Shown: in pieces, positions 27,201 through 55,968 of the stretch | Numbering within the stretch: the stretch's first letter is position 1 | Layout of the letters: every line of letters starts with the position of its first letter | NCBI RefSeq assembly: GCF_003334255.1 | Contig: NZ_QOWU01000030.1 | Direction: 5' to 3' (one strand) | DNA: 59,578 bases | Source: Escherichia coli | GTDB lineage: Bacteria; Pseudomonadota; Gammaproteobacteria; Enterobacterales; Enterobacteriaceae | Notes under the pieces: generated by a model | Databases searched by the model: none | What the model was told of the DNA's origin: nothing | The model's input: the letters and a program-made list of their open reading frames with translations, nothing else | Made by a program: the position numbers and the translations under genes

Positions 27201-27227
27201 TGCATTTGTCATCGCCCGTATGCTTTC

Positions 27228-28273: not shown

Positions 28274-28433
28274 AAAGGTTTAGTCGCTTGTGAAAGTGTT
28301 CTGAAAACGGGCATTATCCAAAGTTAGTTGCCGGATGCAAGCATGATAAGGCCGTGGCTGCGGAAAGTTCCGGTTTACACCCTGCCGTCGCTGTGCTGCA
28401 ATCTTGCCCCCAACAACAGTGAATTCGGTGACC

Positions 28434-29486: not shown

Positions 29487-29510
29487 CGCGTGAGTCGATA
29501 AAGAGGATGA

Positions 29511-29789
<279 letters not shown>

Positions 29790-29826
29790 AAACAGTGCCG
29801 GAGCACGCCTCCGGCAACTTGCATAA

Positions 29827-30933
<1,107 letters not shown>

Positions 30934-35786: not shown

Positions 35787-35862
35787 GCCCGGATAGCTCA
35801 GTCGGTAGAGCAGGGGATTGAAAATCCCCGTGTCCTTGGTTCGATTCCGAGTCCGGGCACCA
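35787..35862 (+). tRNA. pheV: tRNA-Phe (GAA anticodon)
   Basis: 76-nt sequence gcccggatagctcagtcggtagagcaggggattgaaaatccccgtgtccttggttcgattccgagtccgggcacca with CCA end. Confidence 0.97.
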
Positions 35863-36061: not shown

Positions 36062-37057
36062 CTAAAATACATCAGTAAGTTCTGCCAGTTCTTTTTCAAG
36101 CACTCTTGCCGTCCCCTTCAAATCGATTTCCACATACTCCAGAGTGGTGGAAACATTCCTGTGCCCGAGCATGGTTTTCACCATATAAAGATTACGTTCC
36201 GGTGCACTCATCAGCGTACTGGCCAGCGTATGCCGAAAGCGATGAGGTGATACAGGGAAACCGCACTCTTTCGTCAGACGTCTGAAAAATCCTTTTACCG
36301 GTTGCAGTTCCGGAAGTCCGGTAACGAACGGTGCTTCTGACATCAATGCCACATAACGATGATAATGGAAAAGATAATCCTCAGGTCTTGCCCCCCGTTT
36401 CATCGCCTCATCAATCAAGTGCCTCATTCCCGGGACAAGATGACTGACCATAGGGATACGCCACTCATGGTGTGTCTTACTTCCCTCCGAACACAGATCA
36501 ATCCATCTTTCATCCGGATTAACATCCCGCAGACGCAGGTGAAGTAACTGATTTAGCCTCATCCCGGTAAAACGCAGCGTATTTACCACAATCATCCAGT
36601 ACCATGCCGGACGAATCGCACAACTACGCCAGTGCACACCACCAGAACGCTTCTCCTCTTCATGAAACTGTTCAAGAATCAGCAGAATTCGTTTTACCTG
36701 TTTCTTCGTCAGTGTTTTCTTACGTTTCTTTTCCTGTCTGACATTCATACCATCAAACGGATTCTCACTTAAATTAAGAAGTGTTGAGGAACATGCAAAA
36801 TTGAAAATGGCACGCATATGGCGAACCTTGTTATTCCATGTGTGCGTGGAGCGATTCTGTTTTTTCAGAACCTCTCGTTTCCATTCCCTCACATGCTGTT
36901 GCCGGATATCCTCCGGTAAAAGGGTCTCGCCAACAAACTTCCGGAATCCATTCAGAACCTTTAGGTAACTCCACTCCGTAGCCACTCTCACTGAACGGCA
37001 GAAAAAATATTCATCCATAAGCTCGTTCCAGCGCATGTCAGCATGACTTAATTTCAT
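36062..37057 (-). CDS. Tyrosine site-specific recombinase / island integrase, up to 331 aa
   Basis: Catalytic-domain motifs HRFRHTLAS and LGHRNVSTTLEYVEID (R…HxxR…Y); about 200 bp from tRNA-Phe 3' end; exact start among M1/M8/M14 unresolved. Confidence 0.85.
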   Translation of the reverse strand: MKLSHADMRWNELMDEYFFCRSVRVATEWSYLKVLNGFRKFVGETLLPEDIRQQHVREWKREVLKKQNRSTHTWNNKVRHMRAIFNFACSSTLLNLSENPFDGMNVRQEKKRKKTLTKKQVKRILLILEQFHEEEKRSGGVHWRSCAIRPAWYWMIVVNTLRFTGMRLNQLLHLRLRDVNPDERWIDLCSEGSKTHHEWRIPMVSHLVPGMRHLIDEAMKRGARPEDYLFHYHRYVALMSEAPFVTGLPELQPVKGFFRRLTKECGFPVSPHRFRHTLASTLMSAPERNLYMVKTMLGHRNVSTTLEYVEIDLKGTARVLEKELAELTDVF

Positions 37058-37099
37058 AATTAAACCCTTTACAAATAGGTTACATTTTTACCAAAATAC

Positions 37100-41170: not shown

Positions 41171-41466
41171 GCATTCTTGGTGACAGGCACCAGTATTTCA
41201 GACAGCACGCCGGTTTTCGGTAGTACACCGGACAATGCGATTACAAACTCGCTGATTTCACTGGCGTTCTGTAATTCGTTATTAACTCACGCATGGATTT
41301 GTGATCTCTGCGACATACACAGAAACAAAAACATCTTTATTTATATAACACTGGCTTTTCTTCATCTTATTTTAATCAATTCATGCACCCATTTTATCTA
41401 CGCCACTTTTTATTAATTCAGTTAACTCCGTCTTAACAGACAGAAATAGTGAAAAAGGTGATACTG

Positions 41467-42138
41467 ATGAATATATTAAGATACTTAAGTATTTCGCTCT
41501 TCGCGTTCTCATTTTCATATACCGCCACAGCCTCCACTCAGATATCATCATCGCACAACCACGCCGAAAAACGTGCAATCGGTACGCTGAAATTTATACG
41601 GGCCGACGGACAACGACCGTTTGGTCAGGCTATGAAACAATTATTACCCACCGGCTGGCGTACTGAGATTGCCCGTGACGTCCGGCTCCCCGCCAGAATA
41701 TCATGGTCCGGAAATGACCAGTGGAACCATGTTATCGAAAAAACGCTGCCCCGCTACAGCCTGAAAGCCACATTTGATACCTCAGGGAAACGCGTACTGA
41801 TCCAGCAGGCGGAAAAAACGGTAAAATCTGGCCTGTTTTCTGCCCCCGTAACCGGTGTCAAAAAAACAGAAACACGTCATATTGAGCAGGGAATGACCCT
41901 GCGTACAGGGCTGGAAAAATGGGCAGCCGCCGAACCTTGCGCTACCGGGAAATGGAAAGTGGCATGGAAAACGCCGGTAAATTACAGTATCGATGCCCGG
42001 TTAGTTTTTTCAGGTAATTTTATGGATGCACTGAACAGTACATTCGCACTTTATCAGCAGGCTGAAAAACCCTTATATGCCTCGGTGAATAAAAACCAGT
42101 GCGTGCTGATAATTACTGACATCCCGGGGGACAGCTAA
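41467..42138 (+). CDS. Pilus-assembly accessory protein (PilL/TcpQ-like, tentative)
   Basis: Signal peptide; first gene of a block co-linear with the R64 thin-pilus operon; ATG 41467 with AGGTG SD (track starts at GTG 41449). Confidence 0.45.
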   Translation: MNILRYLSISLFAFSFSYTATASTQISSSHNHAEKRAIGTLKFIRADGQRPFGQAMKQLLPTGWRTEIARDVRLPARISWSGNDQWNHVIEKTLPRYSLKATFDTSGKRVLIQQAEKTVKSGLFSAPVTGVKKTETRHIEQGMTLRTGLEKWAAAEPCATGKWKVAWKTPVNYSIDARLVFSGNFMDALNSTFALYQQAEKPLYASVNKNQCVLIITDIPGDS

Positions 42139-42573
42139 ATGGGATGGCTCATGCCCCTCATAATGGCACTGTTTATCATCGGGAACTGGTTTCATGCCGG
42201 CAATACGGAGCGGGCAATAAAAAATACTGATGAGCAGCAAAGACAACAACAGGCATATGAAATATTACGCCTGACAAATGCCATTAATGACTGGAAATAT
42301 CATCATCCCGGTGATATCCGTGAAGGAAAGATGCTTACGGTTAACGAAACCGGATTCGCTCCGGTATACGGAACAAAACATATTATTTCAGGGCAAAGAA
42401 CTTTTGTCTGGCTTCCTTTTCAGCCAGGGCTGATATCAGCCCTGAATGAAGTGAGCCGAAACTCAGCATTAATTGCGCAGGTCAGGGACAGAAAGTTACT
42501 GGATAACCAAGGAAATAATATTGGTGTTCCGCCTTCCGTTATACCGGAAAATGCGATCGTCCTGATCAATTAA
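42139..42573 (+). CDS. PilM-like small membrane-associated protein (tentative), 144 aa
   Basis: N-terminal hydrophobic segment; size and position match R64 pilM. Confidence 0.4.
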   Translation: MGWLMPLIMALFIIGNWFHAGNTERAIKNTDEQQRQQQAYEILRLTNAINDWKYHHPGDIREGKMLTVNETGFAPVYGTKHIISGQRTFVWLPFQPGLISALNEVSRNSALIAQVRDRKLLDNQGNNIGVPPSVIPENAIVLIN

Positions 42574-42781
42574 GCATCCCCAAAAGGGGATTCTGCACTG
42601 AGGTCTGCATATCATGTCTTCTCTCAGCAACATGATATATCGCTACGGCGCAGACTTCAGTCCGGAAAATCTTTCTCAGTGTTCATTAACACATGAAATA
42701 CCCGTCGCTCTGTCTCACTGAATTGTTATTTCGTCCCTCCACAGACAGAGAATAAATATTCAACAAGCAGGTATACAGAAT

Positions 42782-44383
42782 ATGAAAAAATTTTTCTGCG
42801 CTGTCACCGCCTTATCCGTTGTTTTATCAGGCTGCAGCAGTTTTGAACGAATCAGTGCCACAGAAAAAAAAGCATCCGATGAGATAACACGGGCTGAACG
42901 TATAGCCGGTGAACTTCGCAAACAACGCGCCGTTGTGCGCGAAACAAACCAGCAGTGGATCAATACCACGCCCCTTCCGGAAAAAACCGTTACCCGGGCA
43001 ATACCGGATTGCCCGGTCGTCATAAACACCCGGGAAGCCATCACACTTCACCAGATTGCACAGCGGATTTCTGAAACCTGTCATATTCCGGTTCAAATCA
43101 TGTCTGATGTCTGGACACTGCTGGGTACCGGAGAAAATCGCACACAGAGGATCAGCGGCGACATTCCCCCGCCTGATACCAGTGGCATGCAGCCACTGAG
43201 CACCGTGGGGCTGTCATCAGCCGCCCCCTCCACGGCCTCACTGCCGGAACTCAATGTTCAGGGGCTGCCCGCTTTGCTTGACACCGTATCTTCACGCTTT
43301 GGGATCACCTGGCGCTATGTGAAGGGAAAAATTGAATTCCACTGGCTTGACACCCGTACATTCCCGGTCACCTACATGGACAGCCAGGTCGCCTACAATG
43401 CCAGAGTCGTCAGTGGCACCATGTCATCCACGGGCAGTTCCGGTGGTTCATCCGGCAGTTCCCTGAGTGGTGATGCCAGCAATACGCAGACAACCGCGGT
43501 TGATATGAAATCCACACTCTATGAAGACACAAAAAATGCCGTGAATTCCATGCTGACGCCCGGTATCGGAAGGATGGTGTTGTCCACCGGCTTTCTGACC
43601 GTAACCGACACACCACAGGTTCTGGATACTGTTAAGAATTTTATGGAAGAACGTAACCGGGAAATGCGCCGTCAGGTTGTGCTGAATATTGAAATCCTGA
43701 GCATCAAAAAAACCAGCAAAGAGCAGGCCGGAATCGACTGGAACGCCGTTTTCAGTGACGGACATCTCGGTATAGACCTGACCAGTGCATTTACTAATGC
43801 CGCCGATGAAGTCGTGACCAGTGGGGTATCGATTATTGACGGTAAGCTCACCGGTTCAAAAGCGTTTCTGAAAGCGCTTTCATCACAGGGTAAAGTCAGT
43901 GTGGTCACCCAAAACTCGGCTGTCACCAAAAACCTGACGCCGGTTCCTATGCAGGTCGCCAACCAGCAGGGGTACATAGAAAGTGTCACCACGGATACGA
44001 CGGCCAATGTGGGCTCCTCCACCTCACTGAATGCGGCAACAATCACCACCGGCTTCAACATGACACTGTTACCGTTTATCCAGCCCGGCTCACACCGGTT
44101 GCAGTTACTGTTCAGCATGAGCCTGTCCGACAAACCTGTTTTTGAAGTGTTTGAAAGCGGTGGCAGTCGGGCCCAGACACCGAGTGTTGAGCTGAAAACC
44201 ATCAACCAGACCATCGACCTGAAATCAGATCAGACTGTGATCCTGAGCGGATTCCAACAGTTCAGCCGGAAATCGCTCAGACAGGGCGTGGGCACCCCGT
44301 CATTCTTCGGACTCGGTGGTGGCGTGGACAGTGCAGATGACGACACCATTCTGGTTGTGCTGATCACACCGCACGTAATCTGA
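42782..44383 (+). CDS. pilN: Secretin-type outer-membrane lipoprotein (PilN-like), 533 aa
   Basis: Lipobox VLSGCSS; Ser/Gly-rich linker; secretin-like C-terminus (…DDDTILVVLITPHVI). Confidence 0.7.
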   Translation: MKKFFCAVTALSVVLSGCSSFERISATEKKASDEITRAERIAGELRKQRAVVRETNQQWINTTPLPEKTVTRAIPDCPVVINTREAITLHQIAQRISETCHIPVQIMSDVWTLLGTGENRTQRISGDIPPPDTSGMQPLSTVGLSSAAPSTASLPELNVQGLPALLDTVSSRFGITWRYVKGKIEFHWLDTRTFPVTYMDSQVAYNARVVSGTMSSTGSSGGSSGSSLSGDASNTQTTAVDMKSTLYEDTKNAVNSMLTPGIGRMVLSTGFLTVTDTPQVLDTVKNFMEERNREMRRQVVLNIEILSIKKTSKEQAGIDWNAVFSDGHLGIDLTSAFTNAADEVVTSGVSIIDGKLTGSKAFLKALSSQGKVSVVTQNSAVTKNLTPVPMQVANQQGYIESVTTDTTANVGSSTSLNAATITTGFNMTLLPFIQPGSHRLQLLFSMSLSDKPVFEVFESGGSRAQTPSVELKTINQTIDLKSDQTVILSGFQQFSRKSLRQGVGTPSFFGLGGGVDSADDDTILVVLITPHVI

Positions 44384-44394
44384 CGGAGGTTCCC

Positions 44395-45693
44395 TTGAAC
44401 GGGTCAATGCAGAAAAAAATTCGTCCAGTGTCACTGATATCGGGTAAACAGGCATTCCTTGCGGGCCTTGACTGGAAAAACATGCCTCCCGGTTACCGGA
44501 ATGCCCGGCGGTTTGCACAGTCACAGGGCGCAGAACTGTATCTTTCCTGCCACAACCACGACGGTGAAAACGGTGATGAAATGATGATTGCCCTGCTCAG
44601 TCGTCAGGATGCAGATATCCCCCGTAACATTCGCCAGTGCCTGTCACTGGCGATGTTAATACGCCCGCTCCTCAAATCAGGTGGGTATGCCATTTTCATC
44701 ATCGAGAACGACGACGCTGAACTCACCTGTGCGTTTGTATCGGTGATTAATGGCATTCTGGTTAACGACGTTACCGGTACCCCGACTGAAATCACGGAAG
44801 CCCGCAACACGTTCCTGATGCTCAATGCGGAACCGGAAAACGGCTGGGTACGCTACGAACCTGACGGTTTTTCACCAGACAGTCGGTGTATCCCGCTACC
44901 GCTGTCAAACCTGATCAGCACCAGAAAGCATCCGGCAGAAGCGCGTCTGCTCCCCGTGTCCAGAGGCCCACAGTTAATGACAGCCTTACTCATCATCACG
45001 CTGCTTGGCGCATCGTGGTACGGCTGGCAACGTTATGAAATCTGGCAGGCGGAAAAAGCGGAACGTGAAGAAAGCGCCCGGAAATCAGCTGAAGCACGTA
45101 TAACGCCACCATGGACGGGGCAGCCTGAGACCGGAGAATTTATCCGGCAATGCAGCACAACATGGAACCAGACGCCACTGTCTGCTGCCGGATGGCGTTA
45201 TACCCTGGCTGAATGTTCTTCTGACGGTAACAGCGGTAATCTGCGGTCTTCATACACCAATACAGCAGGCACGACAGTGACAGCCTTCATCCGGCGCATC
45301 ACTGAACTCACAGACACCCGGCCGTTTATTGTTATGCCTGAAGGGAACTCTGGCGGCGTTGCACTGCCGGTCACATTCCGGCTCCCAGATAATCCTGTCC
45401 CGGTTGATTCCCTTCCGGAAACCCGAGACCTGCAGGAACGACTGACCACGCTCGCACAGTCAGTTCAACTGCAGATTGACTGGCAGGAAGTCAATAACAG
45501 CTTCACTGATGAAAACGGAAACATCATCCAGCCACCGTGGAAAGAGTATGACCTGCAGATACAGACGCTACTCCCAGCTAACCAGCTGGCAGAGCGCTTC
45601 AGCGAGCCATCTGTCCGTTTTCTCTCCGTCACTAGACAACTGGAAAATGGTCGTTTCCGTTATCAGTTCACAGGTAAATATTATGCACGATAA
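44395..45693 (+). CDS. pilO: PilO-like pilus assembly protein, 432 aa
   Basis: Position and size match R64 pilO; TTG start 5 nt after GGAGG (or ATG at 44407); single TM segment. Confidence 0.55.
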   Translation: MNGSMQKKIRPVSLISGKQAFLAGLDWKNMPPGYRNARRFAQSQGAELYLSCHNHDGENGDEMMIALLSRQDADIPRNIRQCLSLAMLIRPLLKSGGYAIFIIENDDAELTCAFVSVINGILVNDVTGTPTEITEARNTFLMLNAEPENGWVRYEPDGFSPDSRCIPLPLSNLISTRKHPAEARLLPVSRGPQLMTALLIITLLGASWYGWQRYEIWQAEKAEREESARKSAEARITPPWTGQPETGEFIRQCSTTWNQTPLSAAGWRYTLAECSSDGNSGNLRSSYTNTAGTTVTAFIRRITELTDTRPFIVMPEGNSGGVALPVTFRLPDNPVPVDSLPETRDLQERLTTLAQSVQLQIDWQEVNNSFTDENGNIIQPPWKEYDLQIQTLLPANQLAERFSEPSVRFLSVTRQLENGRFRYQFTGKYYAR

Positions 45694-46144
45694 AACAAAA
45701 GCGCTGCTGATTGCAGCCCTGCTGTTACCGGCAATGGCGGTGGCCGGCAACGAAAATGACGCGCCGCAGAACAAACAACTGCAGATTGAGCAGATTCAGG
45801 AAGAAACCGCCCTGTATGAAGCGATGCTGGCAAGAGAAAAAATTCGTCATGAATTGCGGACACTGGAACAGGGTATCTCCCCGGTTTCCGGTTCTGTCAC
45901 GGGACATCAGCCGGAAAATGCGGCTGGCACCTCCTCCGGTTCACAGGCATTATCATCCCCCCGTCTGAAAGAAATCTTTGGTATTCAGCCACAGCTTTCA
46001 GCACGCGTCATACTCCCCGGAGGAACTGAAACTGATGTCAGGGCCGGACAGGCATTACCCGGCACGCTGTTCATGGTGGAACAAATCACACCGGAAAGTG
46101 TGATTCTGGAATACAACGGCAACAAGCAGACGCTACGCCCGTGA
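45683..46144 (+). CDS. pilP: PilP-like periplasmic protein, 153 aa
   Basis: Start MHDKTKALLIAALLLPAMAVA overlapping pilO stop by 11 nt; track ORF over-extended. Confidence 0.55.
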   Translation: MHDKTKALLIAALLLPAMAVAGNENDAPQNKQLQIEQIQEETALYEAMLAREKIRHELRTLEQGISPVSGSVTGHQPENAAGTSSGSQALSSPRLKEIFGIQPQLSARVILPGGTETDVRAGQALPGTLFMVEQITPESVILEYNGNKQTLRP

Positions 46145-46153
46145 GGTGCCATC

Positions 46154-47674
46154 ATGCCAGAGACTATCGTACTGCCTCCTGAAGATATTCGTGATTTCGT
46201 CGCAATTCAGCATGACGCTGACGGAAAAATCAGGGTGAAAGTCGTCGAAGCGAAGAAGCACATCACCTCTGTACAACGTTACCTGACGCTCTTACGCTCC
46301 CGCTATCCGGAAAAAATCAGCAAATTCGATTTTACCACTCTTGACGTTATCGCAGCCCTGAACAGCAATAATACGGAACGTGCACCGGGCGTTTTATCCG
46401 ACGGAGGGATCAACACAGTACAAAGAAAAGTTCTTGATTACATCAGAAAAGCCGCTCAACTGAATGCCTCAGATCTGCATATCACACCAGGACGCGACAA
46501 CACGGACTTCACCTATGTGGAAGCCCGGGTTCACGGCGAACTGGAAGTGCTCGATATCCTCCGGAAAGAAGAAGGCCTCGAATTACTGGGGGCCACCTAT
46601 TCCGGCATGACCGACGTCATCAAGGGCACACAGTTTGATCCCGGGGTGCCTCAGGATGCGCGTCTTTCAGAACAGTACCTGAAACTGGCAGGTCTGTTTG
46701 GTGCACGCTACTCCCACTACCCCTGTGTGGGCGGTCTCTATGCCGTGCTCCGGCTGATCAAGGATGACAGCCAGCAAATCCCGACCTTCAGTATGCTGGG
46801 CTACCACCCTGAGCAGGAGCGCACCCTGCGACGTATTCTGCAACGTCCTGAAGGCATTATCACACTCTCAGGCCCCACCGGCTCAGGAAAATCCACCACG
46901 CTGAGAACCGCCTCTGCGGCATACCTTGAACAGTACGGCTTCAACAACACCGGCGGTATTCTTCTTCCCCGTCGCAGGCTGTTCACCATTGAATCCCCAC
47001 CGGAAGGGCGTATTCCCGGTGCCATTCAGACCGCCGTCATGGATACCGCGCAGGGCTGGGTGGACTCCATCAAATCAGCGTTGCGTCTTGATCCTGACGG
47101 GATCCTGAACGGTGAAATCCGCGACCACGATTCCGCTATTACGGCGATAAAAGCCGCCATGACCGGGCATCTGATGCTGACCACCATCCATGCGAACGAC
47201 CCGATTAATATCCTCGAACGCCTTGAGATGGAAGGCGTTCAGACTAGGATGATCGCCGACCCACAGTTGTTCATCGGCCTGCTGAGCCAGCGTCTGGTTC
47301 AGCTGATATGTCCGCACTGCCGTCGCCCCTGGCATGAGGTGGCCACCGGACGCACGGATGATGAACGGCACCTAGTGGAAGGCTTCTGTAACCCGGACCA
47401 GGTGTATCTGAGAAATCATGAAGGCTGCCCACACTGCTGGCGTGGCGTGACGGGGCGAACGGTTATCGCAGAAGTCATCTCCCCGGATGCCCGTTTTTTC
47501 CAGTTGTACCGGGAAAAGGGCCGTATTGAGGCTAAAACCTACTGGCACAGAGAACTGGGCGGAATGACCCGAAATCAGCATCTCCAGGGAAAAATCAACA
47601 GCGGACAGGTTGATCCGCTAGCGGCCCATTACATCTCTCCCATCGACGAGGACAGCTATACGCTGTTGCACTGA
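46154..47674 (+). CDS. pilQ: Type IV pilus assembly ATPase (GspE/PilB family), 506 aa
   Basis: Walker A LSGPTGSGKSTTL, Asp box, His box (TIHANDP), tetracysteine motif (CPHC…CPHC). Confidence 0.85.
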   Translation: MPETIVLPPEDIRDFVAIQHDADGKIRVKVVEAKKHITSVQRYLTLLRSRYPEKISKFDFTTLDVIAALNSNNTERAPGVLSDGGINTVQRKVLDYIRKAAQLNASDLHITPGRDNTDFTYVEARVHGELEVLDILRKEEGLELLGATYSGMTDVIKGTQFDPGVPQDARLSEQYLKLAGLFGARYSHYPCVGGLYAVLRLIKDDSQQIPTFSMLGYHPEQERTLRRILQRPEGIITLSGPTGSGKSTTLRTASAAYLEQYGFNNTGGILLPRRRLFTIESPPEGRIPGAIQTAVMDTAQGWVDSIKSALRLDPDGILNGEIRDHDSAITAIKAAMTGHLMLTTIHANDPINILERLEMEGVQTRMIADPQLFIGLLSQRLVQLICPHCRRPWHEVATGRTDDERHLVEGFCNPDQVYLRNHEGCPHCWRGVTGRTVIAEVISPDARFFQLYREKGRIEAKTYWHRELGGMTRNQHLQGKINSGQVDPLAAHYISPIDEDSYTLLH

Positions 47675-47675
47675 C

Positions 47676-48776
47676 ATGAGATTTCTGGAAAAACTCAACA
47701 ACACCGACATTGAGCTGACAGCACTGACCGTCTGGATAGCCAGAAAAATCTTTGCCCTGAACCGGGTGGAGTTCTACGAATCCCTGGGCGGCATGATACG
47801 TGACGGGACCCCGTCACTGCGTGCACTCGAATTTCTCTGCAATGTCGAAACTGACTTCGGAACCCGGAAAGGGACATCAGGCATGTATTTTCTGGCGAAG
47901 GAATGCATCGCGTCCATTAAATCCAGCGGCATGTTATCCGGTGCTCTGCCCACCTGGGTGCCGCCGGAAGAAGCCACGCTCATTCGGAACGGGGAAGAGC
48001 GCGGGAATATTGCCGACGCGCTTTTCCAGGTGGCCAGAACCGTTAAGGCACGGCGGGAAATGACATCCAGCCTCATTGCCGTCTGCCTCTACCCCCTTCT
48101 GCTGCTTTCGCTCTGTGTGGTGAATATGTACAACGCCCATACCCGTATTGTCCCCATCGTCAGTGCGTTTGCTGCAGAAGATAAATGGTCATTCCAGATG
48201 AAAGTGCTGGCTGGCATGTCGGAGTTTTTCATCGGGTACGGATTCTGGCTCTGCGGGGCCAGTTTCACCCTGACTGTTCTGATCCGTTTTTCATTCAGCC
48301 GGTATACCGGCCCCGGCAGGAGGATGCTGGACAGGATTCCCCCCTGGTCACTGTATCAGACCTTACACGGGGTGAATTATCTGTTCAGTATTTCATCCAT
48401 GTTGCAGATCAATATTCCTCTTTCGCAGGCGCTGCTCCGAATGGAAAAAGGGGCAGAAAATAATAAATGGTTAAAGGAGAGAATTCAGGCAATAAGAAAA
48501 CATGTATTATCCGGTCAGAATCTGGCCACGGCAATGCGAAATTCCGGTTACGATTTCCCGTCCAGAATATGTATCAATAAACTGCTCCTGAATTCCGAAA
48601 GGGAGGACAGTGTGGCAGCCATGGCGCTCTATGCCGATCAGTGGCTGGAGGAAGCAAAAAAACGGGTAAAACGAATTGGATTAATTATTACCGGTATATC
48701 AGGAGGTTTTGTCTTCTTTTTTATTCTTAACATGATATCTGCCATCTACAGTATCAGCGACATGCTGAAGCAATAA
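47676..48776 (+). CDS. pilR: Type IV pilus inner-membrane platform protein (GspF/PilC family), 366 aa
   Basis: Polytopic membrane protein directly after the ATPase, 1-nt gap. Confidence 0.75.
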   Translation: MRFLEKLNNTDIELTALTVWIARKIFALNRVEFYESLGGMIRDGTPSLRALEFLCNVETDFGTRKGTSGMYFLAKECIASIKSSGMLSGALPTWVPPEEATLIRNGEERGNIADALFQVARTVKARREMTSSLIAVCLYPLLLLSLCVVNMYNAHTRIVPIVSAFAAEDKWSFQMKVLAGMSEFFIGYGFWLCGASFTLTVLIRFSFSRYTGPGRRMLDRIPPWSLYQTLHGVNYLFSISSMLQINIPLSQALLRMEKGAENNKWLKERIQAIRKHVLSGQNLATAMRNSGYDFPSRICINKLLLNSEREDSVAAMALYADQWLEEAKKRVKRIGLIITGISGGFVFFFILNMISAIYSISDMLKQ

Positions 48777-48827
48777 TCCCCGCCATACAGAATATTTCTT
48801 AAATATCCCATACACCAGGAGTGACAT

Positions 48828-49364
48828 ATGAACTTCAGAGCACGTATTTTTTATTACTTTTCTTTAAAAAAAGAGAAAGAGGAGGATAAAGGTTTAACAT
48901 TACTGGAAATTGCCGGCGCACTAATTATCATCGGTATTGTGGTTGCTCTCGCAATGAGTCAGATGTCCAGCACAATGGCATCCAGTGACAACCAGCGAGA
49001 ACTGAAAAACCTGCAGACCATTGCAACCAAAATGAAGCAGTACAAGTTCCAGGGCAGATATACCGGCACGGATTATATCAAAACCCTGACGGAAAGCGGA
49101 TCCCTGCCGGCTGATATGATTGCCGGAGGCAACAAAGCCAAAAACGCATGGGGAGGCGATGTCACCATTGCAACAACAAGTAATAAATACGGTTATATTA
49201 TAACCAGCAAAGCCGTGCCAAAAGAAAACTGTGTTGAACTGATTAACAGCCTGCGCAGTTCATCCATGTTCACAAAAATCAAAGGCCAGACACCTGCCAG
49301 TGTGGATCCGGTAACTGTATGTTCTGCCGCCACAAACGATATAACGCTCGAAACCAGCAGTTAA
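48828..49364 (+). CDS. pilS: Type IVb major prepilin, 178 aa
   Basis: Long leader then …KGLTLLEIAGALIIIGIVVALA (pilin processing motif, Glu+5); AGGAG SD. Confidence 0.75.
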   Translation: MNFRARIFYYFSLKKEKEEDKGLTLLEIAGALIIIGIVVALAMSQMSSTMASSDNQRELKNLQTIATKMKQYKFQGRYTGTDYIKTLTESGSLPADMIAGGNKAKNAWGGDVTIATTSNKYGYIITSKAVPKENCVELINSLRSSSMFTKIKGQTPASVDPVTVCSAATNDITLETSS

Positions 49365-49376
49365 TATCCTGACACA

Positions 49377-49399
49377 GCGCCCCCCCCGGGGCGCTTTTT
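49377..49399 (+). terminator. Intra-operon intrinsic terminator after major pilin gene
   Basis: gcgcccc/ggggcgc stem, cccc loop, ttttt tail, 13 nt after pilS stop. Confidence 0.6.
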
Positions 49400-49414
49400 C
49401 CGGAGCACATCCGC

Positions 49415-49897
49415 ATGAAATGGTTATTTCTTTCTGTCGTGATTTTTCCGTTATCTTTCACCCTTCCGGCTGAAGCTACCGCCACAAACACATTACTGGA
49501 CAGTTGCTTTATTCAGGCCGGGAAACGCTATCTGATTGCCCCTGAGCTTCTTAAAACCATTGCACAGCAGGAAAGCAGCCTGGTCGCCACCGCGATAAAT
49601 CACAATAAAAACAAATCCGGAAAAATCATCAGTACGGATTACGGGATTATGCAGATTAATTCAGTACATATTCCTGAGCTGAAAAAACTGGGGGTCATTA
49701 AAGATAAAAATGAACTGCTTAATAATCCCTGCCTGAATATTCAGACCGGTGCCTGGATACTGGCCCGCCATTTTCAACGCTGCGGCGTTAACTGGGAATG
49801 CCTTGGCAGCTATAACGCCGGATTCAGCAAAAATAACACAGCCCGGCGCATGATATATGCCCGAAAAATCCACAACCGGTATTTCAGAAAAGATTAA
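49415..49897 (+). CDS. pilT: Soluble lytic transglycosylase-domain protein, 160 aa
   Basis: Signal peptide; SLT motifs (…IAQQESSL…, …YGIMQINSVH…). Confidence 0.8.
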   Translation: MKWLFLSVVIFPLSFTLPAEATATNTLLDSCFIQAGKRYLIAPELLKTIAQQESSLVATAINHNKNKSGKIISTDYGIMQINSVHIPELKKLGVIKDKNELLNNPCLNIQTGAWILARHFQRCGVNWECLGSYNAGFSKNNTARRMIYARKIHNRYFRKD

Positions 49898-49907
49898 TTA
49901 ATACGAG

Positions 49908-50564
49908 GTGACGGTGAGCGCATTACTGAGCATGGCAATAATAATCATCATCCTGGCGGTTATTCTTTATCTTGCATACAGCACCGCCGCCATCTATCTG
50001 TCAGCAGTACACGACACCCGGCCACCAAAGCCGGTGGTGTACATATGTTGTCTTCTGGCCATAGTGAGTGTCAGTCTCAACGGCGCATATGGTGTTGAGG
50101 CCACGGGGCTGTTATTCCTTTCCATTCTGACGGGATTATTAACTGTAATGACGCTGACGGATATTGCTGTCTGTCGGCTTCCCCGGATATTCACGCTTTC
50201 TCTTATTATTCTGGGCGCAGCGTTCAGATACAGCCAGGACTCACTGACTCATGCCCTGCTCAACGCGTCACTGTGGTTCGGCATGATATACCTGTTACGA
50301 CGCATTTTTCTGGCAGCGAAAGGGACGGAAGCGCTCGGCCTTGGTGATGTGTTCCTGATTGCGGGGATCGCAATGTGGACGCAACCGCAACACACTCCAC
50401 TGATAATCACCGCCGCAGCCTCCGGAGCATTTCTGTTTATCCTCATTTTCTGCCGTCGCAGATGCCAGTTAGCGCTGCCGTTTGCCCCGTTTCTCTGCGC
50501 GTCCCTGTATGTGCTGACCCTCTTCCCTGATTCCGTTATCCACACATCGGAGATATTCACGTGA
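49908..50564 (+). CDS. pilU: Prepilin peptidase (A24 family), 218 aa
   Basis: Polytopic membrane protein with LGLGDVFLIAG motif; start codon uncertain (GTG 49908 / GTG 49914 / ATG 49932). Confidence 0.7.
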   Translation: MTVSALLSMAIIIIILAVILYLAYSTAAIYLSAVHDTRPPKPVVYICCLLAIVSVSLNGAYGVEATGLLFLSILTGLLTVMTLTDIAVCRLPRIFTLSLIILGAAFRYSQDSLTHALLNASLWFGMIYLLRRIFLAAKGTEALGLGDVFLIAGIAMWTQPQHTPLIITAAASGAFLFILIFCRRRCQLALPFAPFLCASLYVLTLFPDSVIHTSEIFT

Positions 50565-51850
50565 AAAAATTCAGACACGATGACGATAAAGGTTTTATTC
50601 TGCTTGAGGTTCTGGCGGGACTGATAGTGATTGGTATTGCCACACCAATGATTTATTCAGAAATTGAAGACTGGCTGAATGAACAACTTTATCAAAGTGC
50701 GGCTTTACATGCTGATGAATATAATAATGCAATAAAAAATTATGTGGCTGATAAAACCAGCTCACTCTCCAGTAAAACTATCACGGTAAATGAATTAATT
50801 CAGCAGGGATATCTGAACAACGGTTTTTCCCGCTCCCCCTTTGGACAAAGCTATATTACCGGTATCAGAAAAAATAATTTATCCGGTCGTCTGGAAGCAC
50901 TTACCTGCACAACCGGAGGACAGGATATTAAAGAAGATGGGTTACGTCGCATAGCGGGCCAGATTAATGGACTCGGTGGTTTTATGCTCCAGAATAATTC
51001 CGTTACAGGTTCCTTTGGCGGCTGGACCGATCTGGGAAGTAATTATCAGATTACCTGCAACAAGGGGCATATCGCCATGCGAATGGCAGGAAAAGATCTG
51101 GAGGAAAGCGATCGGCTGTACCGCTACAGCGTTCCGGGAAGACCCGATTTAAACAGAATGCATACTGGCATTGATATGAATAATAACAGCATCACCAATA
51201 TCAATGAAGCCAGTGGTAAAAACGCCAGATTTTCAGGCGATGTCACATCAAATCGTTGGTTACATCCAAATGGTGGCGGCTTCACCATGACGGACAGCCA
51301 GTGGATACGTGCTGTTAACAACAAAGGGATCACAACCGAAGGAGAGCTCAAAGGAGGAAAAGTCAGTGGTGGAACTGTCCGGTCTGAGGGGCGTCTTTCC
51401 ACGGGTGAGTATTTACAGCTGGATAAAACAGCTACTGCAGACACTTTCTGCTCACCAGACGGACTTGTAGGCCGCGACAGCAAAGGAGCAATACTTTCGT
51501 GCCAATCCGGTGCCTGGCGAACGATTGGTGCGCCTGACGGAAGTTACAGCAATTTGGGTTCTCACAGGGGAACATTTAACGGGAGAAATAACGGCAGAGG
51601 AACTTTGTTTGTGTACGCTTCCGGTGGAAATAGTGCCGGTGGCGGTGATTGCGCCAACACATCAAATCTTCAGGGCTATGTGAACGGCGCTTTCATTGGT
51701 ATGAATGCCAGCAATAACCCCTCCTACGGAAAGACGGCATTTATTTCATTTGCCGTGCCAGTGGGAGCGTCATATCAAATCATCTCCAGACCAACACAAA
51801 ATTACGCCTGTGGTAACGGTGTTTTCTCTTTGTATGCCTATCAGATGTGA
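50561..51850 (+). CDS. pilV: Minor pilin/adhesin PilV with shufflon-encoded C-terminus (current isoform), 429 aa
   Basis: Prepilin N-terminus …KGFILLEVLAGLIVIG; GTG start overlapping pilU stop; sfx repeat in frame as S-C-Q-S-G-A-W at 51499-51517. Confidence 0.75.
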   Translation: MKKFRHDDDKGFILLEVLAGLIVIGIATPMIYSEIEDWLNEQLYQSAALHADEYNNAIKNYVADKTSSLSSKTITVNELIQQGYLNNGFSRSPFGQSYITGIRKNNLSGRLEALTCTTGGQDIKEDGLRRIAGQINGLGGFMLQNNSVTGSFGGWTDLGSNYQITCNKGHIAMRMAGKDLEESDRLYRYSVPGRPDLNRMHTGIDMNNNSITNINEASGKNARFSGDVTSNRWLHPNGGGFTMTDSQWIRAVNNKGITTEGELKGGKVSGGTVRSEGRLSTGEYLQLDKTATADTFCSPDGLVGRDSKGAILSCQSGAWRTIGAPDGSYSNLGSHRGTFNGRNNGRGTLFVYASGGNSAGGGDCANTSNLQGYVNGAFIGMNASNNPSYGKTAFISFAVPVGASYQIISRPTQNYACGNGVFSLYAYQM

Positions 51851-52822
51851 GTCCCTAGCTGGCTTTAACAATGTAGTTAAATGCAATGTTTTTGGGACGC
51901 ATTTCTGTGGTACTCCCCTGTGCCCAGTATGGCATACCACTATGATGCCCTTTCAGCCATCCGCCACGTTCGTGATAGACGCCTGATTGATCGGCCTGAT
52001 AACTCAGGAGCTGTCTGTTCTGATCACCATCAAGTCCCTTCCCGTTATCCCAGCCACGGATAAAAACACCGCGCAGATCGGGCAATTTACAGCCAGGATA
52101 AGCACGGGCAAGCTGAGGATACCGGGAACAGGAAAACGACTGGCCGTCCATCAACAGATAGCCTTGTGGAGGAGTGGCAGATGGCCACGGGATAGGGCTT
52201 CCCACAGGGTAGGATTCAAAGCCACCCCACACACCGGATTGGCACTGGCCTCCGTGCCAATCCGGTTCGTGGAAAAATGCAGGAAAAGGCGATATTGAAA
52301 TCGTCAAAGTAACAGCATCAAAACTCCGCTGGCCTGGTGCTACTGCCACCTGCCCAATGGGTAAGAAGGTGATCGGGGGTGGTGCAGAATGCAGCTCTGG
52401 AATTGGCTTTATCTGGCTTGTCCGTTCAATACCTGTAAACAATAATGCCTGGTATGGCTATTGCGATACGACAGAACACATCATTGGAAAAATAACTGTA
52501 CATGCCATTTGCCAATGACAAAGTGATTTACTGGCAAACCACAATGTAACTACATTTCCCCGTCAGGTCGTTCCTGTTTGTACCGCCGTGAAAATTGTAT
52601 TCATCGTAGTAACCACACTTCACAATCCTGTTCGAATCATATGTCGCAACAGAACCTGCGAAGTAATTTGGCTTCCAGCCATGCGGGTTCTCAGCATTGC
52701 TGACGCTCCAGGTACACTGGCTGGCAGAAAAACCAGACGGCAAAGGTAGTCGTTCTCCATTCGCGATTTTTCCTGTCAGAACAGTGCTACCTGATACCCT
52801 AATCCACGAACCGGATTGGCAC
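51499..52822. other. Shufflon: two invertible segments bounded by four 19-bp sfx repeats, four alternative pilV 3' exons
   Basis: sfx1 51499-51517 gtgccaatccggtgcctgg (+); sfx2 52227-52245 (-, rc gtgccaatccggtgtgtgg); sfx3 52254-52272 gtgccaatccggttcgtgg (+); sfx4 52804-52822 (-); open frames continue in-frame from each repeat: A 51518-51850 (+), A' 51855-52226 (-), B 52273-52518 (+), B' 52528-52803 (-). Confidence 0.8.
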
Positions 52823-52884
52823 GGCGATATTGCATTTCCGTTTCACTATTCCTACCTTCCCCGTTTTTATCGTGGAAGGCCGAT

Positions 52885-54054
52885 ATGTTTCGAAAAATCA
52901 AAATTCGCAAAATGACTCTCAACCGGGCGCTGGACAAATACCTGAAAACCGTTTCCGTCCATAAAAAAGGTCATCTGCAGGAGTTTTATCGCGTCAATGT
53001 GATTAAACGTCACCCTATGGCCGATCGCTATATGGATGAAATCACGACCGTTGATATCGCCGGTTACCGGGATCAGCGTTTGGCTCAAATTAACCCACGA
53101 ACAGGGCGTCAAATCACCGGAAATACCGTCCGTCTTGAACTTGCCCTTTTATCATCATTATTCAATATCGCCCGTGTGGAATGGGGAACATGCCGTATGA
53201 ATCCTGTTGAACTGGTCCGAAAACCGAAAATCAGTAATGGCCGCGACCGCCGACTGACTTCTGGTGAAGAACGCCGCCTTTCCCGCTATTTCAGGGACAA
53301 AAATCCGCAGCTCTACGTTATCTTCCATCTGGCTCTGGAAACAGCAATGCGCCAGGGAGAAATTCTCTCATTACGCTGGGAACACCTCGATTTGCAGCAC
53401 GGCGTGGCGCATCTTCCTGAAACGAAAAATGGCTCACCACGCGACGTACCACTCTCCCGGAAAGCACGTAACTACCTGCAAATTCTGCCACAACAGATAA
53501 ACGGCAATGTGTTCAGTTACACCTCGTCCGGTTTCAAAAGCGCCTGGCGTACCGCTCTTCTGGATCTGAAAATAGAAAATCTGCATTTTCACGATCTCCG
53601 CCATGAGGCCATCAGCCGTCTGTTCGAGCTCGGCACACTGAACGTTATGGAGATTGCAGCCATTTCCGGTCACCGCTCCCTGAACATGTTGAAACGGTAC
53701 ACACATCTCCGGGCATATCACCTGGTCAGTAAACTCGATGCAAGGCGTAAACAGACCAGCAAAATTTCCCCTTATTTTGTTCCCTACCCAGCAACTGTCA
53801 GAAACAGAAACGGAGTGTTCATTGTGACACTGCACGATTTCGACCTTGAAAGCCGTGCTGACACCCGGGAACTGGCAATATCTCACGCCAGCGTATTGTT
53901 GCTGCGCGCACTGGCCCAGGCTGCTCAGCGGGGTGAACGCGTCCCCACACCAGGCGAGCTACCCGCAAACATTGATGAACGGGTCATGATTTGTCCGTTA
54001 ACAAACAGCCAGTTCATGACAAAAGCGAACAGTATTTTCATATCCTCCTCCTGA
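52885..54054 (+). CDS. rci: Shufflon-specific tyrosine recombinase (Rci-like), 389 aa
   Basis: Motifs [10 protein letters not shown] and [13 protein letters not shown]; GGAAGG SD; immediately downstream of sfx4. Confidence 0.8.
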
Positions 54055-54083
54055 ACAAATAATTTTTGTTCAAAATTAACGCT

Positions 54084-54386
54084 ATGAGACCCTTTATGAA
54101 ACACTTATCCTCCCGTGCAGCCACTGCGGATAATAATCGTATCGTTACAATTGAAGACGTTTACACAATCGCATTCTCGCAACCAATTCACACCGAATCA
54201 GCGTTGGGGCAAAGGTGGATGTTGATCCATACTGGTGAATATGAAAGTGCCAGCGATGCAAAACGCTTCCTTGATACGCTCGTCACCGGGCACTGTGCTT
54301 GCATGGTAACACCATCACCTGTTCTGGATCATGACACCTGGCTGCGTATCCGCCTGCTGATGGGCGAGATAAGGGATGCCAAATAA
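54084..54386 (+). CDS. Hypothetical protein, about 100 aa
   Basis: ORF only; start uncertain (TTG 54066 or ATG 54084). Confidence 0.35.
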   Translation: MRPFMKHLSSRAATADNNRIVTIEDVYTIAFSQPIHTESALGQRWMLIHTGEYESASDAKRFLDTLVTGHCACMVTPSPVLDHDTWLRIRLLMGEIRDAK

Positions 54387-54477
54387 ACATTCATGGCCCC
54401 AACGCATAAAAATAACGACGGGGACTCTGGCAGTGGTACCATTCTTTTTACATAGAGCCAATATATAAACAACTTTT

Positions 54478-54798
54478 CTATGATAATATCTTTATCATGT
54501 TATAAATAATTGTCCCCTCAGCAGAAAGGGCCCAAATAGAAAAAGCAAAAATCCTTATAAAAATATTCTTTACAAGCGTTCCTATATACAAACAAACTAT
54601 ATAAACCAGCCAGAACAGAATGACTGCAAAAGAAACACACACGGCCCCCATAAAAATAAATGTCATCGAATCCCATGGTTTCACCAGTACAACCGGAACC
54701 ATGGCTGCCAGAACAATAAGAGCAGCATTACCCAACAGCGTCTCTCGAATAATATCCCTTATAATCTCCAGTTTTTCTTTATGCTGTTTAATTTTCAT
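54478..54798 (-). CDS. Hypothetical small membrane protein, 106 aa
   Basis: Two predicted TM helices; in an AT-rich stretch. Confidence 0.4.
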   Translation of the reverse strand: MKIKQHKEKLEIIRDIIRETLLGNAALIVLAAMVPVVLVKPWDSMTFIFMGAVCVSFAVILFWLVYIVCLYIGTLVKNIFIRIFAFSIWALSAEGTIIYNMIKILS

Positions 54799-55057
54799 AT
54801 GAACCTCATTGATTTCATCCCGAAAAGGAAAAGATTATATAACGAAATACTTTCAATCTCCTGACTCCGTCTGCTCTGCAGCATAATGCCAGACCAGCGG
54901 CATGCTAAATCACGTCCTGTCCGAATCCTTTTCATTCACGCTTAAAACAGAGTTAAAAGCACTCTTGAAACACACTCGATCATAACGATCGAAATAACTC
55001 GTTTCCGTTCAGTAAACACGCTCTTTAGACTTAACATATGAACCGCACGGAGGTGAA

Positions 55058-55879
55058 ATGAAACCCAACAGCACAGGCATTGCTGCCCGCATGATGCTCT
55101 CCATTGACAGGGTCCGGATTTGCGAAGCTCTGCTCAATAACCGCCAGTTGCAGTCCACTCCTCTGCAGATCCGTTATCCGCAGGGTGTCAGAGAAGCACT
55201 CGGAATAATGAGCGAGCAACTCTCCCTTTCTGTATCCGACCTGACGCGTATCCTGGTCGAAGATGCATTAACTGAAATGTTTCTCCCGGCTGAAAACATC
55301 GTTCACCGTCTTATCTGCCGGACAGAACACATCATGCAGGCACATGATGTCTGCGTAACAACGATGACAACGTTACTGGCTCCCTGGAATATCCGTCCTG
55401 CCGTTTTCCGTGACCCGGACAAACTCGCAGATTATCTGACAGGAGAGATTCTGACTGCTCTGGCTGACTGGTTTTATCTCAACCCGGAATGGCTGAACGG
55501 CAGGGTACGTTATCCTTTAAGCCGTGCCGGTGAGTGGCCAGCAACACAGGATGCGTTCTGCCAGCTTATTTCAGCCAGCGATAATGTGGATATTATTATC
55601 TGGCACAGTTTTCCTTTTGCCGGTGTTCATTCACAGGAATATTGCGGTGTACTGTTCCGCAAGAAAAAAGAAATTAATAAAGCCATCATTTATCCTGTAC
55701 TTTCTTTATCACCTGTAAGAATGAATAAGGAAAAAGAAAACTGGTTTCACACTGCCCGCAATTTATATGCAAAGACATCCGTCCGGACCGTAACGCTTCG
55801 TCCGGCACAGGCAGAATATCTGATGATAGGAAAAATATTACCTGCTGAGTTATTCAGTATACCGTTATTACCCTGGTAA
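55058..55879 (+). CDS. Hypothetical protein, 273 aa
   Basis: GGAGG SD 7 nt upstream; no recognisable catalytic motif. Confidence 0.5.
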   Translation: MKPNSTGIAARMMLSIDRVRICEALLNNRQLQSTPLQIRYPQGVREALGIMSEQLSLSVSDLTRILVEDALTEMFLPAENIVHRLICRTEHIMQAHDVCVTTMTTLLAPWNIRPAVFRDPDKLADYLTGEILTALADWFYLNPEWLNGRVRYPLSRAGEWPATQDAFCQLISASDNVDIIIWHSFPFAGVHSQEYCGVLFRKKKEINKAIIYPVLSLSPVRMNKEKENWFHTARNLYAKTSVRTVTLRPAQAEYLMIGKILPAELFSIPLLPW

Positions 55880-55968
55880 TAACGCAGAGAAAAAACCAGT
55901 AAATTTTTAATGGCACAGTCGTGTCATACCGTTGCTGTACCCAAAACACCTCAAACCAGGAAACTGAA

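Follow-up and report, generated by a model that had tools for sequence, protein, structure and literature searches.

The 3' end of pilV in the window (the whole stretch of 59,578 nucleotides of Escherichia coli DNA analysed here) very probably carries a canonical, naturally active Rci/sfx shufflon, which would vary the tip adhesin of the thin pilus of an ICE of the ICEEc8 family inserted at pheV. We infer the activity of this shufflon from differences between the assemblies of related strains; for the rest, the locus is an ordinary representative of a system that is already well known. It was already on record: PGAP names the genes, and the supplement of the ICEEc8 paper lists the recombinase.

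Layout of the shufflon, its tips and its recombinase

A pattern search of the window returned four exact matches to GTGCCAATCCGGTNNNTGG, at 51499, 52227, 52254 and 52804, whose orientation alternates, as the preliminary description of this DNA had stated. The features of the locus are the following:

50561..51498, plus strand: pilV constant region, 313 aa; Pfam Shufflon_N PF04917, E = 1.8e-51 and 1.7e-31
51499..51517, plus strand: sfx1 (GTGCCAATCCGGTGCCTGG), by pattern search; junction of the constant region and the shufflon
51500..51850, plus strand: tip exon A, 116 aa, beginning CQSGAW; expressed in the present arrangement; 68% aa identity to the R64 A tip
51855..52244, minus strand: Tail Collar tip exon, 129 aa, beginning CQSGVW; silent at present
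52227..52245, minus strand: sfx2 (GTGCCAATCCGGTGTGTGG), by pattern search
52246..52253: spacer of 8 bp between segment 1 and segment 2 (sfx2 to sfx3)
52254..52272, plus strand: sfx3 (GTGCCAATCCGGTTCGTGG), by pattern search
52255..52518, plus strand: B-type tip exon, 87 aa, beginning CQSGSWKNAG; silent at present
52528..52821, minus strand: D'-type tip exon, 97 aa; silent at present
52804..52822, minus strand: sfx4 (GTGCCAATCCGGTTCGTGG), by pattern search
52885..54054, plus strand: rci, shufflon-specific tyrosine recombinase, 389 aa, intact, directly downstream of the shufflon

The rest of the layout is likewise as first described. The constant region, with its Shufflon_N domain, terminates in frame at sfx1; each repeat is in frame with a C-terminal exon, and the four exons read open over 116, 129, 87 and 97 aa; the codons C-Q-S-G-x-W, read from the TGC of the repeats, are common to the isoforms (CQSGAW, CQSGVW, CQSGSW). 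Within each segment the two exons converge and fill it almost fully, with stop-to-stop gaps of 4 bp and 9 bp, and the 8 bp that separate sfx2 from sfx3 are also found between adjacent sfx sites of R64. In the present arrangement PilV, with tip A, is a protein of 429 aa.

When up to three mismatches were allowed, two further matches, weak and unrelated, appeared elsewhere in the window; 0.73 matches are expected by chance, and a total of six was reached in 0 of 100 shuffles. The same scan recovered all seven known sfx sites of R64 (NC_005014), taken as a control, and within the window it revealed neither degenerate extra sfx sites nor remnants of a third segment. Promoter and terminator scans over the shufflon and rci gave nothing above the shuffled expectation.

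The constant region shares 42% identity with PilV-A of R64. The tips had been named A, A', B and B', which does not hold as a statement of homology once they are compared with the R64 tips: they correspond to A, to a Tail Collar tip, to B and to D'. The 129-aa tip carries a phage Tail Collar domain (Pfam Collar PF07484, E = 3.7e-13) and corresponds to none of the seven tips of R64. The B-type tip is 54% identical in aa to the R64 tip at 28715(-), and its ORF is named "shufflon protein B" by PGAP in a related locus; the D'-type tip is 80% identical to the tip of the single-ORF segment of R64 at 29243(+). Compared with their R64 homologues the tips display a Ka of 0.13–0.38, for a Ks that is saturated (A, D') or reaches 1.26 (B). 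With Ka well below Ks and all frames open, this comparison of sequences establishes that the silent tips are under purifying selection.

Aligned with R64 Rci over 373 aa (residues 6–372), Rci shows 75% identity; its C-terminal extension is retained, and the motifs AMRQGE, HDLRHE, GHRS and RYTHL, the last of which holds the active-site tyrosine, are conserved. It gives matches to the tyrosine-recombinase family, and Pfam Phage_integrase is found on identical loci. With NCBIfam, Rci gave only sub-threshold Xer/integrase matches, and no family was obtained for PilV or for the separate tips; the assignment of both proteins thus rests on Pfam and on the direct comparison with R64.

Inversion isomers in public assemblies

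By analogy with R64, IncI2 and PAPI-1, Rci would be the responsible enzyme, able to recombine any two inverted sfx sites. The crossover would take place in the conserved 5' part of the 19-mer, presumably its GTGCCAA core. Inversion of segment 1, of segment 2 or of both together would generate 2! x 2^2 = 8 arrangements. In each of them the C-terminus of PilV would be translated from the tip adjoining the constant region, to which the shared C-Q-S-G-x-W codons join it in frame.

Among 25 loci with the same 313-aa PilV constant region we found 8 of the 8 possible arrangements of two segments, the counts of which are not frequencies, as short-read assemblies may pick one arrangement from a mixed population; even an arbitrary choice of this kind by the assembler would still imply inversion. 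Both orientations of a one-segment derivative also occur among these 25 loci. Moreover, the constant region is annotated in public E. coli assemblies as exact fusion proteins with each of the tips (Collar in 278 contigs, D' in 154, A in 147+4 and B in 75), so that the proposal that it could be fused to any of the four is borne out. Throughout the 25 loci the variable triplet of each sfx travels with its exon, which places the crossover 5' of the triplet; this agrees with the anatomy reported for sfx, a 7-bp core and a 12-bp right arm (PMC11852207).

Could these isomers be assembly artefacts of the 19-bp repeats? Shufflons are notoriously hard to assemble (PMC5430464), and many public PilV entries are "partial" (305–312 aa), their contigs ending at an sfx junction. 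However, a repeat of 19 bp lies far below the read length and should not by itself confuse the assembly, while breaks at the junctions are precisely the expected product of a mixed isomer population. Besides, every arrangement seen is predicted by the inversion model, sfx triplets staying with their exons, and the complete long-read chromosomes of STEC2018-553, 2015C-3121, 2013C-3033 and SCU-171 also differ in arrangement. We therefore regard an artefact as hardly credible. STEC2018-553, 99.8–99.97% identical to the window outside the shufflon, has both segments inverted; 2015C-3121 misses exactly 755 bp, i.e. the distance from sfx1 to sfx3.

The same data bear on another reading, in which the architecture is intact but frozen, no longer inverting in the source strain, so that the differences between genomes would reflect old events or recombination with plasmids. 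There is a precedent, a chromosomal shufflon in S. Paratyphi C described as inactive (Tam 2004, in the passage quoted in bioRxiv 10.1101/2025.10.13.681940), and relatives of the present locus do decay: in one, IS66 has inserted into pilV and IS26 truncates rci, and another has a decayed tip with an 11-bp deletion. Against this, the four sfx are perfect, rci is full length with its catalytic motifs, and the eight arrangements are all met behind an identical 313-aa constant region; above all, two complete chromosomes 99.8–100% identical outside the shufflon differ in arrangement, which is hard to explain without frequent and recent inversion. A frozen relic is thus very unlikely, and we retain a shufflon that is probably still inverting.

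The gene pilR is frameshifted in two related loci. Together with the disrupted pilV and rci and the decayed tip mentioned above, this suggests that the system is dispensable and decays in some lineages.

Relation to R64 and to three-segment shufflons

The shufflon of the IncI1 plasmid R64 shares with this one the 19-bp sfx consensus, the 8-bp spacing, the order and orientation of pilV, shufflon and rci, the Rci protein at 75% identity, a homologous PilV constant region and the tips A, B and D' (68%, 54% and 80% aa). It differs by its size, four segments, seven sfx and seven PilV tips as against two segments and four sfx; by its content, as tip A is partnered in the ICE by the Tail Collar tip absent from R64, whose A' is unrelated, and D' shares a segment with B whereas in R64 it stands alone in its own; and by its location, a plasmid instead of a chromosomal ICE. 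The locus had been viewed as the R64 architecture in reduced form: the Rci/sfx design is indeed the same, but the immediate ancestor is a three-segment shufflon and not the four-segment one of R64.

Such three-segment shufflons are carried by the plasmid pGF60-A, by K. pneumoniae KPWX136 pC and by the ICEs of 2013C-3033 and SCU-171. They have the same A/Collar and B/D' segments as the window (97–99% nt to pGF60-A), the same rci and the same traE/traF downstream; the window differs by lacking the 487-bp C74/C87 middle segment. The difference in sfx-to-sfx length is 495 bp, which fits a deletion between two direct sfx sites. Judged from these sequences, the two-segment shufflon is a deletion derivative of the three-segment form (A/Collar, C/C', B/D') by loss of the middle segment between direct sfx sites, and a further loss of segment 1 would have led to the one-segment forms of sister strains. 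The number of sfx indeed varies in related islands, with three-, two- and one-segment forms, and in the three-segment relatives (IncK2/Z-type plasmids and sister ICEs) the order of the segments is permuted.

The likeness to pGF60-A is not uniform. The nucleotide identity is 97–99% over a stretch that starts in the 3' part of pilV, takes in the shufflon and rci and extends to traF, but only ~85% over the N-terminal two thirds of pilV and the pil genes that precede it. The breakpoint lies at ~51272, i.e. ~230 bp upstream of sfx1. We rejected a swap of the plasmid-like patch via an sfx site on account of this position, which points rather to homologous recombination.

It is tempting to go further and to propose one recombination network that would unite the ICE with the IncI-complex plasmids of the same cell, a tentative idea that we hold rather improbable. 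The sfx sites are identical and the Rci proteins closely related, and several strains, among them GF60 and 2013C-3033, carry a chromosomal as well as a plasmid shufflon. If such a network existed, the Rci of either element could act in trans on the shufflon of the other as well as on its own, chromosome and plasmids would exchange tips, and the chromosomal shufflon would decide the recipients of the ICE. The stepwise loss from three to two to one segment would then be the work of Rci on direct sfx sites, a type of deletion reportedly disfavoured by the R64 enzyme.

The ICE setting and the role of the tips

The surroundings of the shufflon in the window comprise:

35787..35862, plus strand: tRNA-Phe (pheV), by ARAGORN; ICE integration site and left boundary
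36062..37057, minus strand: ICE integrase (tyrosine recombinase) ORF; its homologue in a relative is WP_000777206.1, i.e. ICEEc8 ORF1
41449..50564, plus strand: type IVb thin-pilus operon (pilL-like, pilM, N, O, P, Q, R, S, T, U), all ORFs intact
55058..57171, plus strand: traE-like and traF genes, downstream of rci; 99% identity to pGF60-A; ICEEc8 ORFs 21-22

Integrase and relaxase-like ORFs together span 36062–38854. The shufflon sits at the end of the type IVb pilL–V operon, in which the ORFs are intact from 41449 to 51850; their lengths are near those annotated by PGAP in a relative, and the Pfam domains T2SSE, T2SSF, PilS, SLT and Peptidase_A24 are found on identical loci. The traE-like and traF genes are syntenic with IncI-complex plasmids and with ICEEc8. 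On the annotated, near-identical chromosome of STEC2018-553 the island adjoins yqgA and tRNA-Phe, with mltC, nupG and speC farther out, and contains TIGR037xx ICE proteins, TraD, TraG, a conjugative ATPase, topB, ssb, ParB and STY4528/STY4534-family proteins; these conjugation genes are read from that chromosome only, as the window ends at 59578, before the region concerned.

Thus the locus is chromosomal, as had been claimed: tRNA-Phe is in the window, core genes flank the island on STEC2018-553 and the backbone is that of an ICE. These features support its location inside an SPI-7/PAPI-1-type ICE of the ICEEc8 family, at pheV of an STEC-like E. coli chromosome. An IncI-complex conjugative plasmid was considered as the carrier and rejected on the chromosomal flanks and the ICE backbone, only the pil-shufflon-rci-traE/traF module being plasmid-like.

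ICEEc8 (Montero et al. 2019, PMC6455142), whose attachment site is pheV, has the same integrase accession (WP_000777206.1), a PFGI-1-class relaxase, a pil operon, a "Shufflon-specific DNA recombinase", traE/traF and iha. In the island of a near-identical relative an autotransporter remnant takes the place of the sigA of ICEEc8. The published FHI72 copy differs in that its shufflon has a single segment, where a C-type tip ORF of 74 aa faces pilV, and in that its recombinase is 374 aa long. SPI-7 of S. Typhi, here taken by description, is likewise a chromosomal ICE-type island at tRNA-Phe; it carries rci, backbone genes of the STY4528/STY4534 family and a type IVb pil operon whose pilV bears 19-bp inverted repeats at its 3' end, but it has one invertible segment and two PilV forms, against two segments, four tips and eight arrangements here, and the present pil/rci module is far nearer IncI-complex plasmids (85–99% nt). 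The main text of PMC6455142 holds no occurrence of the word shufflon, and in the open-access literature we found no description of a multi-segment chromosomal shufflon in E. coli; on pheV together with pilV in E. coli islands we found nothing but the paper on E. coli W, whose subject is a plasmid without rci and shufflon.

What the tips do can be approached by analogy. The PilV adhesins of R64 bind the LPS of recipients and set mating specificity (Ishiwa & Komano 2004; Komano 1994), and transfer of PAPI-1, a related ICE, requires its type IVb pilus, which recognises the LPS of the recipient (PMC5297154). From these systems and that of IncI2, each tip may bind a different cell-surface structure such as LPS, and the choice of tip would set the recipients of the ICE in liquid mating, or the cells and surfaces adhered to. 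A change of recipient or receptor specificity, suggested from the outset, is thus inferred from R64 and IncI2.

An active shufflon might instead serve host adhesion or the control of self-aggregation rather than the choice of conjugation recipients. In SPI-7, switching by Rci influences both the synthesis of PilV and the self-association of the bacteria (Tam 2004, quoted in bioRxiv 10.1101/2025.10.13.681940); the host belongs to a lineage of intestinal pathogens, and its ICE has adhesin genes or remnants, iha and the autotransporter remnant at the place of sigA. On the other hand, the tips are 54–80% identical to the R64 tips A, B and D', whose adhesins set mating specificity, the pilus of PAPI-1 is needed for transfer (PMC5297154), and the pil-rci-traE-traF module is 97–99% identical to that of a conjugative plasmid. 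An adhesive role in place of recipient choice thus seems unlikely, though possible, and the two roles are not mutually exclusive.

The locus leaves the current understanding of shufflon working unchanged. It has practical consequences: it will break or scramble short-read assemblies, it yields spurious PilV "variants" in databases, and it could bias the typing of this ICE. Related islands occur in ~1% of complete E. coli genomes, and roughly 56 complete chromosomes carry this ICE family. As a natural system of four tips and eight states, entirely in public data, it could be used to probe whether the range of recipients open to an ICE depends on tip switching. The locus is further a record of module exchange between ICEs and plasmids, and it indicates that multi-segment shufflons, usually associated with IncI plasmids, operate on a chromosomal ICE as well, in E. 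coli strains that produce Shiga toxin and in others.

Repeats, tips and recombinase

Four copies of the 19-bp shufflon repeat sfx, each mismatch-free to GTGCCAATCCGGTNNNTGG, were located in the window by pattern search, in alternating orientation and exactly where the preliminary description had placed them. Allowing three mismatches or fewer added just two further matches in the 59.6-kb window, weak and unrelated, while shuffled sequences gave a mean of 0.73 matches and never attained six; the identical scan recovered all seven known sfx sites of the IncI1 plasmid R64. The 8 bp foreseen between sfx2 and sfx3 are found, and sfx spacing in R64 is likewise of 8 bp. Translated starting at the TGC within each repeat, the four alternative C-termini (tips) of PilV are all open and in frame, as expected, and in each segment the exon pair is convergent and nearly fills it, again as described.

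Features of the shufflon locus in the window
35787-35862, tRNA-Phe
51499-51517, + strand, sfx1, exact match
tip A, CQSGAW..., 116 aa, now joined to pilV (full protein 429 aa)
51855-52244, - strand, tip Collar, CQSGVW..., 129 aa
52227-52245, - strand, sfx2, exact match
52254-52272, + strand, sfx3, exact match
tip B, CQSGSWKNAG..., 87 aa
tip D', 97 aa
52804-52822, - strand, sfx4, exact match
52885-54054, rci recombinase, 75% identity to R64 Rci over 373 residues

In PilV, the constant region falls in the Pfam family Shufflon_N (E = 1.8e-51) and shares 42% identity with R64 PilV-A. The alignment of Rci to its R64 counterpart takes in the C-terminal extension that characterises shufflon invertases, with the motifs AMRQGE, HDLRHE, GHRS and RYTHL all conserved. 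At sequence level the locus thus has everything that defines an R64-type shufflon; the sole R64-type feature absent is plasmid location which, the SPI-7 shufflon being chromosomal, is not defining for shufflons. Rci would invert the DNA between any inverted sfx pair; the tip adjoining the constant region would be translated, the C-Q-S-G-x-W common to the isoforms being encoded within the repeat, a point on which the earlier reading was right, and the remaining three tips, deprived of an N-terminal part, would be silent.

A chromosomal ICE and its natural isomers

The chromosomal location initially proposed is borne out by the chromosome of strain STEC2018-553, 99.8-99.97% identical to the window outside the shufflon, in which flanking core genes are annotated: tRNA-Phe comes after mltC, nupG, speC and yqgA, an order that identifies it as pheV. 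To its right follow an integrase, a relaxase-like gene, a UvrD-type helicase, a type IVb thin-pilus operon (intact in the window), pilV-shufflon-rci, a traE-like gene and traF. The corresponding window sequence stops at 59578; in STEC2018-553 the island runs on for more than 90 kb, with TIGR037xx "integrating conjugative element" genes, TraD, TraG, a conjugative ATPase, topoisomerase III, ssb, STY4528/STY4534-family genes and ParB. The island is an ICE of the SPI-7/PAPI-1 type, its conjugation genes being observed in this relative. It corresponds to ICEEc8, reported at pheV in STEC O117:H7 and O91:H14 (PMC6455142), the supplementary ORF table of which lists pil genes, a 74-aa PilV-tip ORF, a "Shufflon-specific DNA recombinase" and integrase WP_000777206.1, the accession also borne by the integrase of the STEC2018-553 island; the main text of that paper does not mention a shufflon. 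Islands of this family occur on the chromosome of about 56 of 5,426 complete E. coli genomes. On the 3' side of traF (57300-59578; 26778-29905 in the STEC2018-553 record) the ICE is degraded, with a 3' fragment of an autotransporter gene at the ICEEc8 sigA position, frameshifted higA/relE-type toxin-antitoxin genes, an IS3 fragment and IS1A; in strain 2015C-3121, an IS1 lies between traF and the gene downstream of rci.

This ICE family is already in the literature, a supplement includes its recombinase, and PGAP names its genes ("shufflon system ... PilV", "shufflon protein A/B"). In the open-access literature we found no account of a multi-segment shufflon on a chromosomal E. coli ICE, nor any description of the full set of natural isomers, of the reduction series from three to two to one segment, or of the mosaic with IncK2/Z-type plasmids.

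That the constant region can be fused to any of the four tips, as had been predicted, is documented by public assemblies of related strains. The four full-length isoforms (the 313-aa constant region plus each tip) were looked up by exact sequence, and all are on record as annotated E. coli proteins, on 278 contigs for Collar, 154 for D', 147 for A (plus 4 with the window's own allele) and 75 for B, numbers that are not frequencies; numerous additional PilV entries are "partial" (305-312 aa), their contigs being broken at the junction. Contigs were then fetched per isoform, and sfx sites and tips mapped at 25 loci. Two segments can take eight arrangements, and every one of them occurs (their counts, likewise, are not frequencies): [A,Col][B,D'], that of the window, [A,Col][D',B], [Col,A][B,D'], [Col,A][D',B], [B,D'][Col,A], [B,D'][A,Col], [D',B][A,Col] and [D',B][Col,A]. 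Compared with the window, STEC2018-553 carries both segments in inverted form. Swapped segment order requires inversions spanning both segments, the hallmark of shufflons. In 25 of 25 loci the variable sfx triplet keeps to its exon (GCC with A, GTG with Collar, TCG with B and D'), which places the crossover 5' of the triplet and agrees with the published structure of sfx, in which a 7-bp core separates a variable left arm from a 12-bp right arm (PMC11852207).

Some relatives have decayed. On the MDR_56 chromosome pilV is split by the IS66-family element ISCro1 (L008:6317-9013) and rci is truncated beside IS26 (L008:10490-10697); the switch no longer works in this copy. The T2SS-F-family gene pilR, intact in the window (47676-48776), is frameshifted in 2015C-3121 (L002:118-1217) and split into two ORFs in an assembly with identical PilV (L019:619-1718), so that, from sequence, the thin pilus may be non-functional in some strains still displaying shufflon variation. 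The related ICE of NCTC9112 has only three sfx sites (L013:6503-7745); none was located for the tip facing Collar, so this segment can no longer invert alone.

Segment loss and probable exchange with plasmids

Counting sfx repeats in related islands and plasmids gives a series of three, two and one segments. Six sites and three segments, [A|Collar], [C74|C87] and [B|D'], are present in two IncK2/Z-type plasmids (pGF60-A and K. pneumoniae pC) and two sister ICEs (2013C-3033 and SCU-171), with segment order permuted from one to another; other ICEs of the family have two segments, three that carry another set of tips, or degraded ones. The layout of pGF60-A minus its middle segment is that of the window, and the layout of STEC2018-553 minus segment 1 is that of 2015C-3121, which lacks exactly 755 bp, the sfx1-to-sfx3 distance, and retains only [D'|B]. 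This one-segment derivative is seen in both orientations (2015C-3121 and loci L029, L033, L035 and L017, each without exactly 755 bp). The R64 architecture "in reduced form" of the preliminary description is refined by this series: the immediate ancestor is a three-segment shufflon, here deprived of its middle segment, rather than the four-segment one of R64. Each loss is the product expected of one recombination between two direct sfx sites. Such recombination is reportedly disfavoured by Rci, owing to sfx asymmetry and the Rci C-terminal domain (PMC11852207); we infer that Rci made these deletions.

The window is 96.8% identical to pGF60-A over 51272-52272, spanning the [A|Collar] part, and 99.0% over 52227-57054 ([B|D'], rci, the traE-like gene and traF), against about 85% for the remaining pilV and upstream pil genes. 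The pattern is opposite with the 2013C-3033 ICE, to which identity is 99% as far as 51511 and about 90% beyond. The breakpoint at 51272 lies within the pilV constant region, off any sfx site, and the plasmid-like patch reaches at least 57054; the exchange was therefore probably homologous, and these identities point to a recent event between an ICE and an IncI-complex plasmid. Strain GF60 carries chromosomal (L011) and plasmid (L006) shufflons with identical sfx core and right-arm sequences, and 2013C-3033 has a plasmid with pil genes (H127) besides its chromosomal shufflon; in such strains, trans-shuffling or sfx-mediated cointegration is conceivable.

Tip identity and predicted function

The exon names A/A'/B/B' first given remain good as positional labels but not as homology. 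Tip A is 68% identical to R64 type A and the fourth tip 80% to type D'; the third, of the type named B by PGAP, is 54% identical to one R64 tip. The Collar tip matches the phage Tail Collar family (PF07484, E = 3.7e-13) and has no counterpart among the seven tips of R64. This phage domain may hint that receptor-binding modules of phages and the tips of pili have a common ancestry. PGAP labels the silent Collar exon, on numerous chromosomes and plasmids, as an incomplete "phage tail protein" pseudogene, an annotation artefact caused by the shufflon. Compared with R64, Ks is saturated for tips A and D' and 1.26 for B, with Ka of 0.13-0.38; together with the open frames, these values indicate purifying selection on exons that would be silent in any one arrangement. 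In a single assembly (GCA_047963305.1, L020:5733) an 11-bp deletion cuts the silent B tip to 59 aa, showing that single tips can decay.

For the SPI-7 switch of S. Typhi, which has one segment, a part in adhesion or self-association has been proposed; this may by analogy apply to the two segments here, and may coexist with a role in recipient range. The PilV tips of R64 reportedly bind LPS of the recipient and determine specificity for recipients when mating takes place in liquid (Komano 1994; Ishiwa & Komano 2004); in the related ICE PAPI-1, transfer requires the type IVb pilus, which recognises LPS on the recipient (PMC5297154). By analogy with both, the shufflon most likely serves to diversify the recipients open to the ICE.
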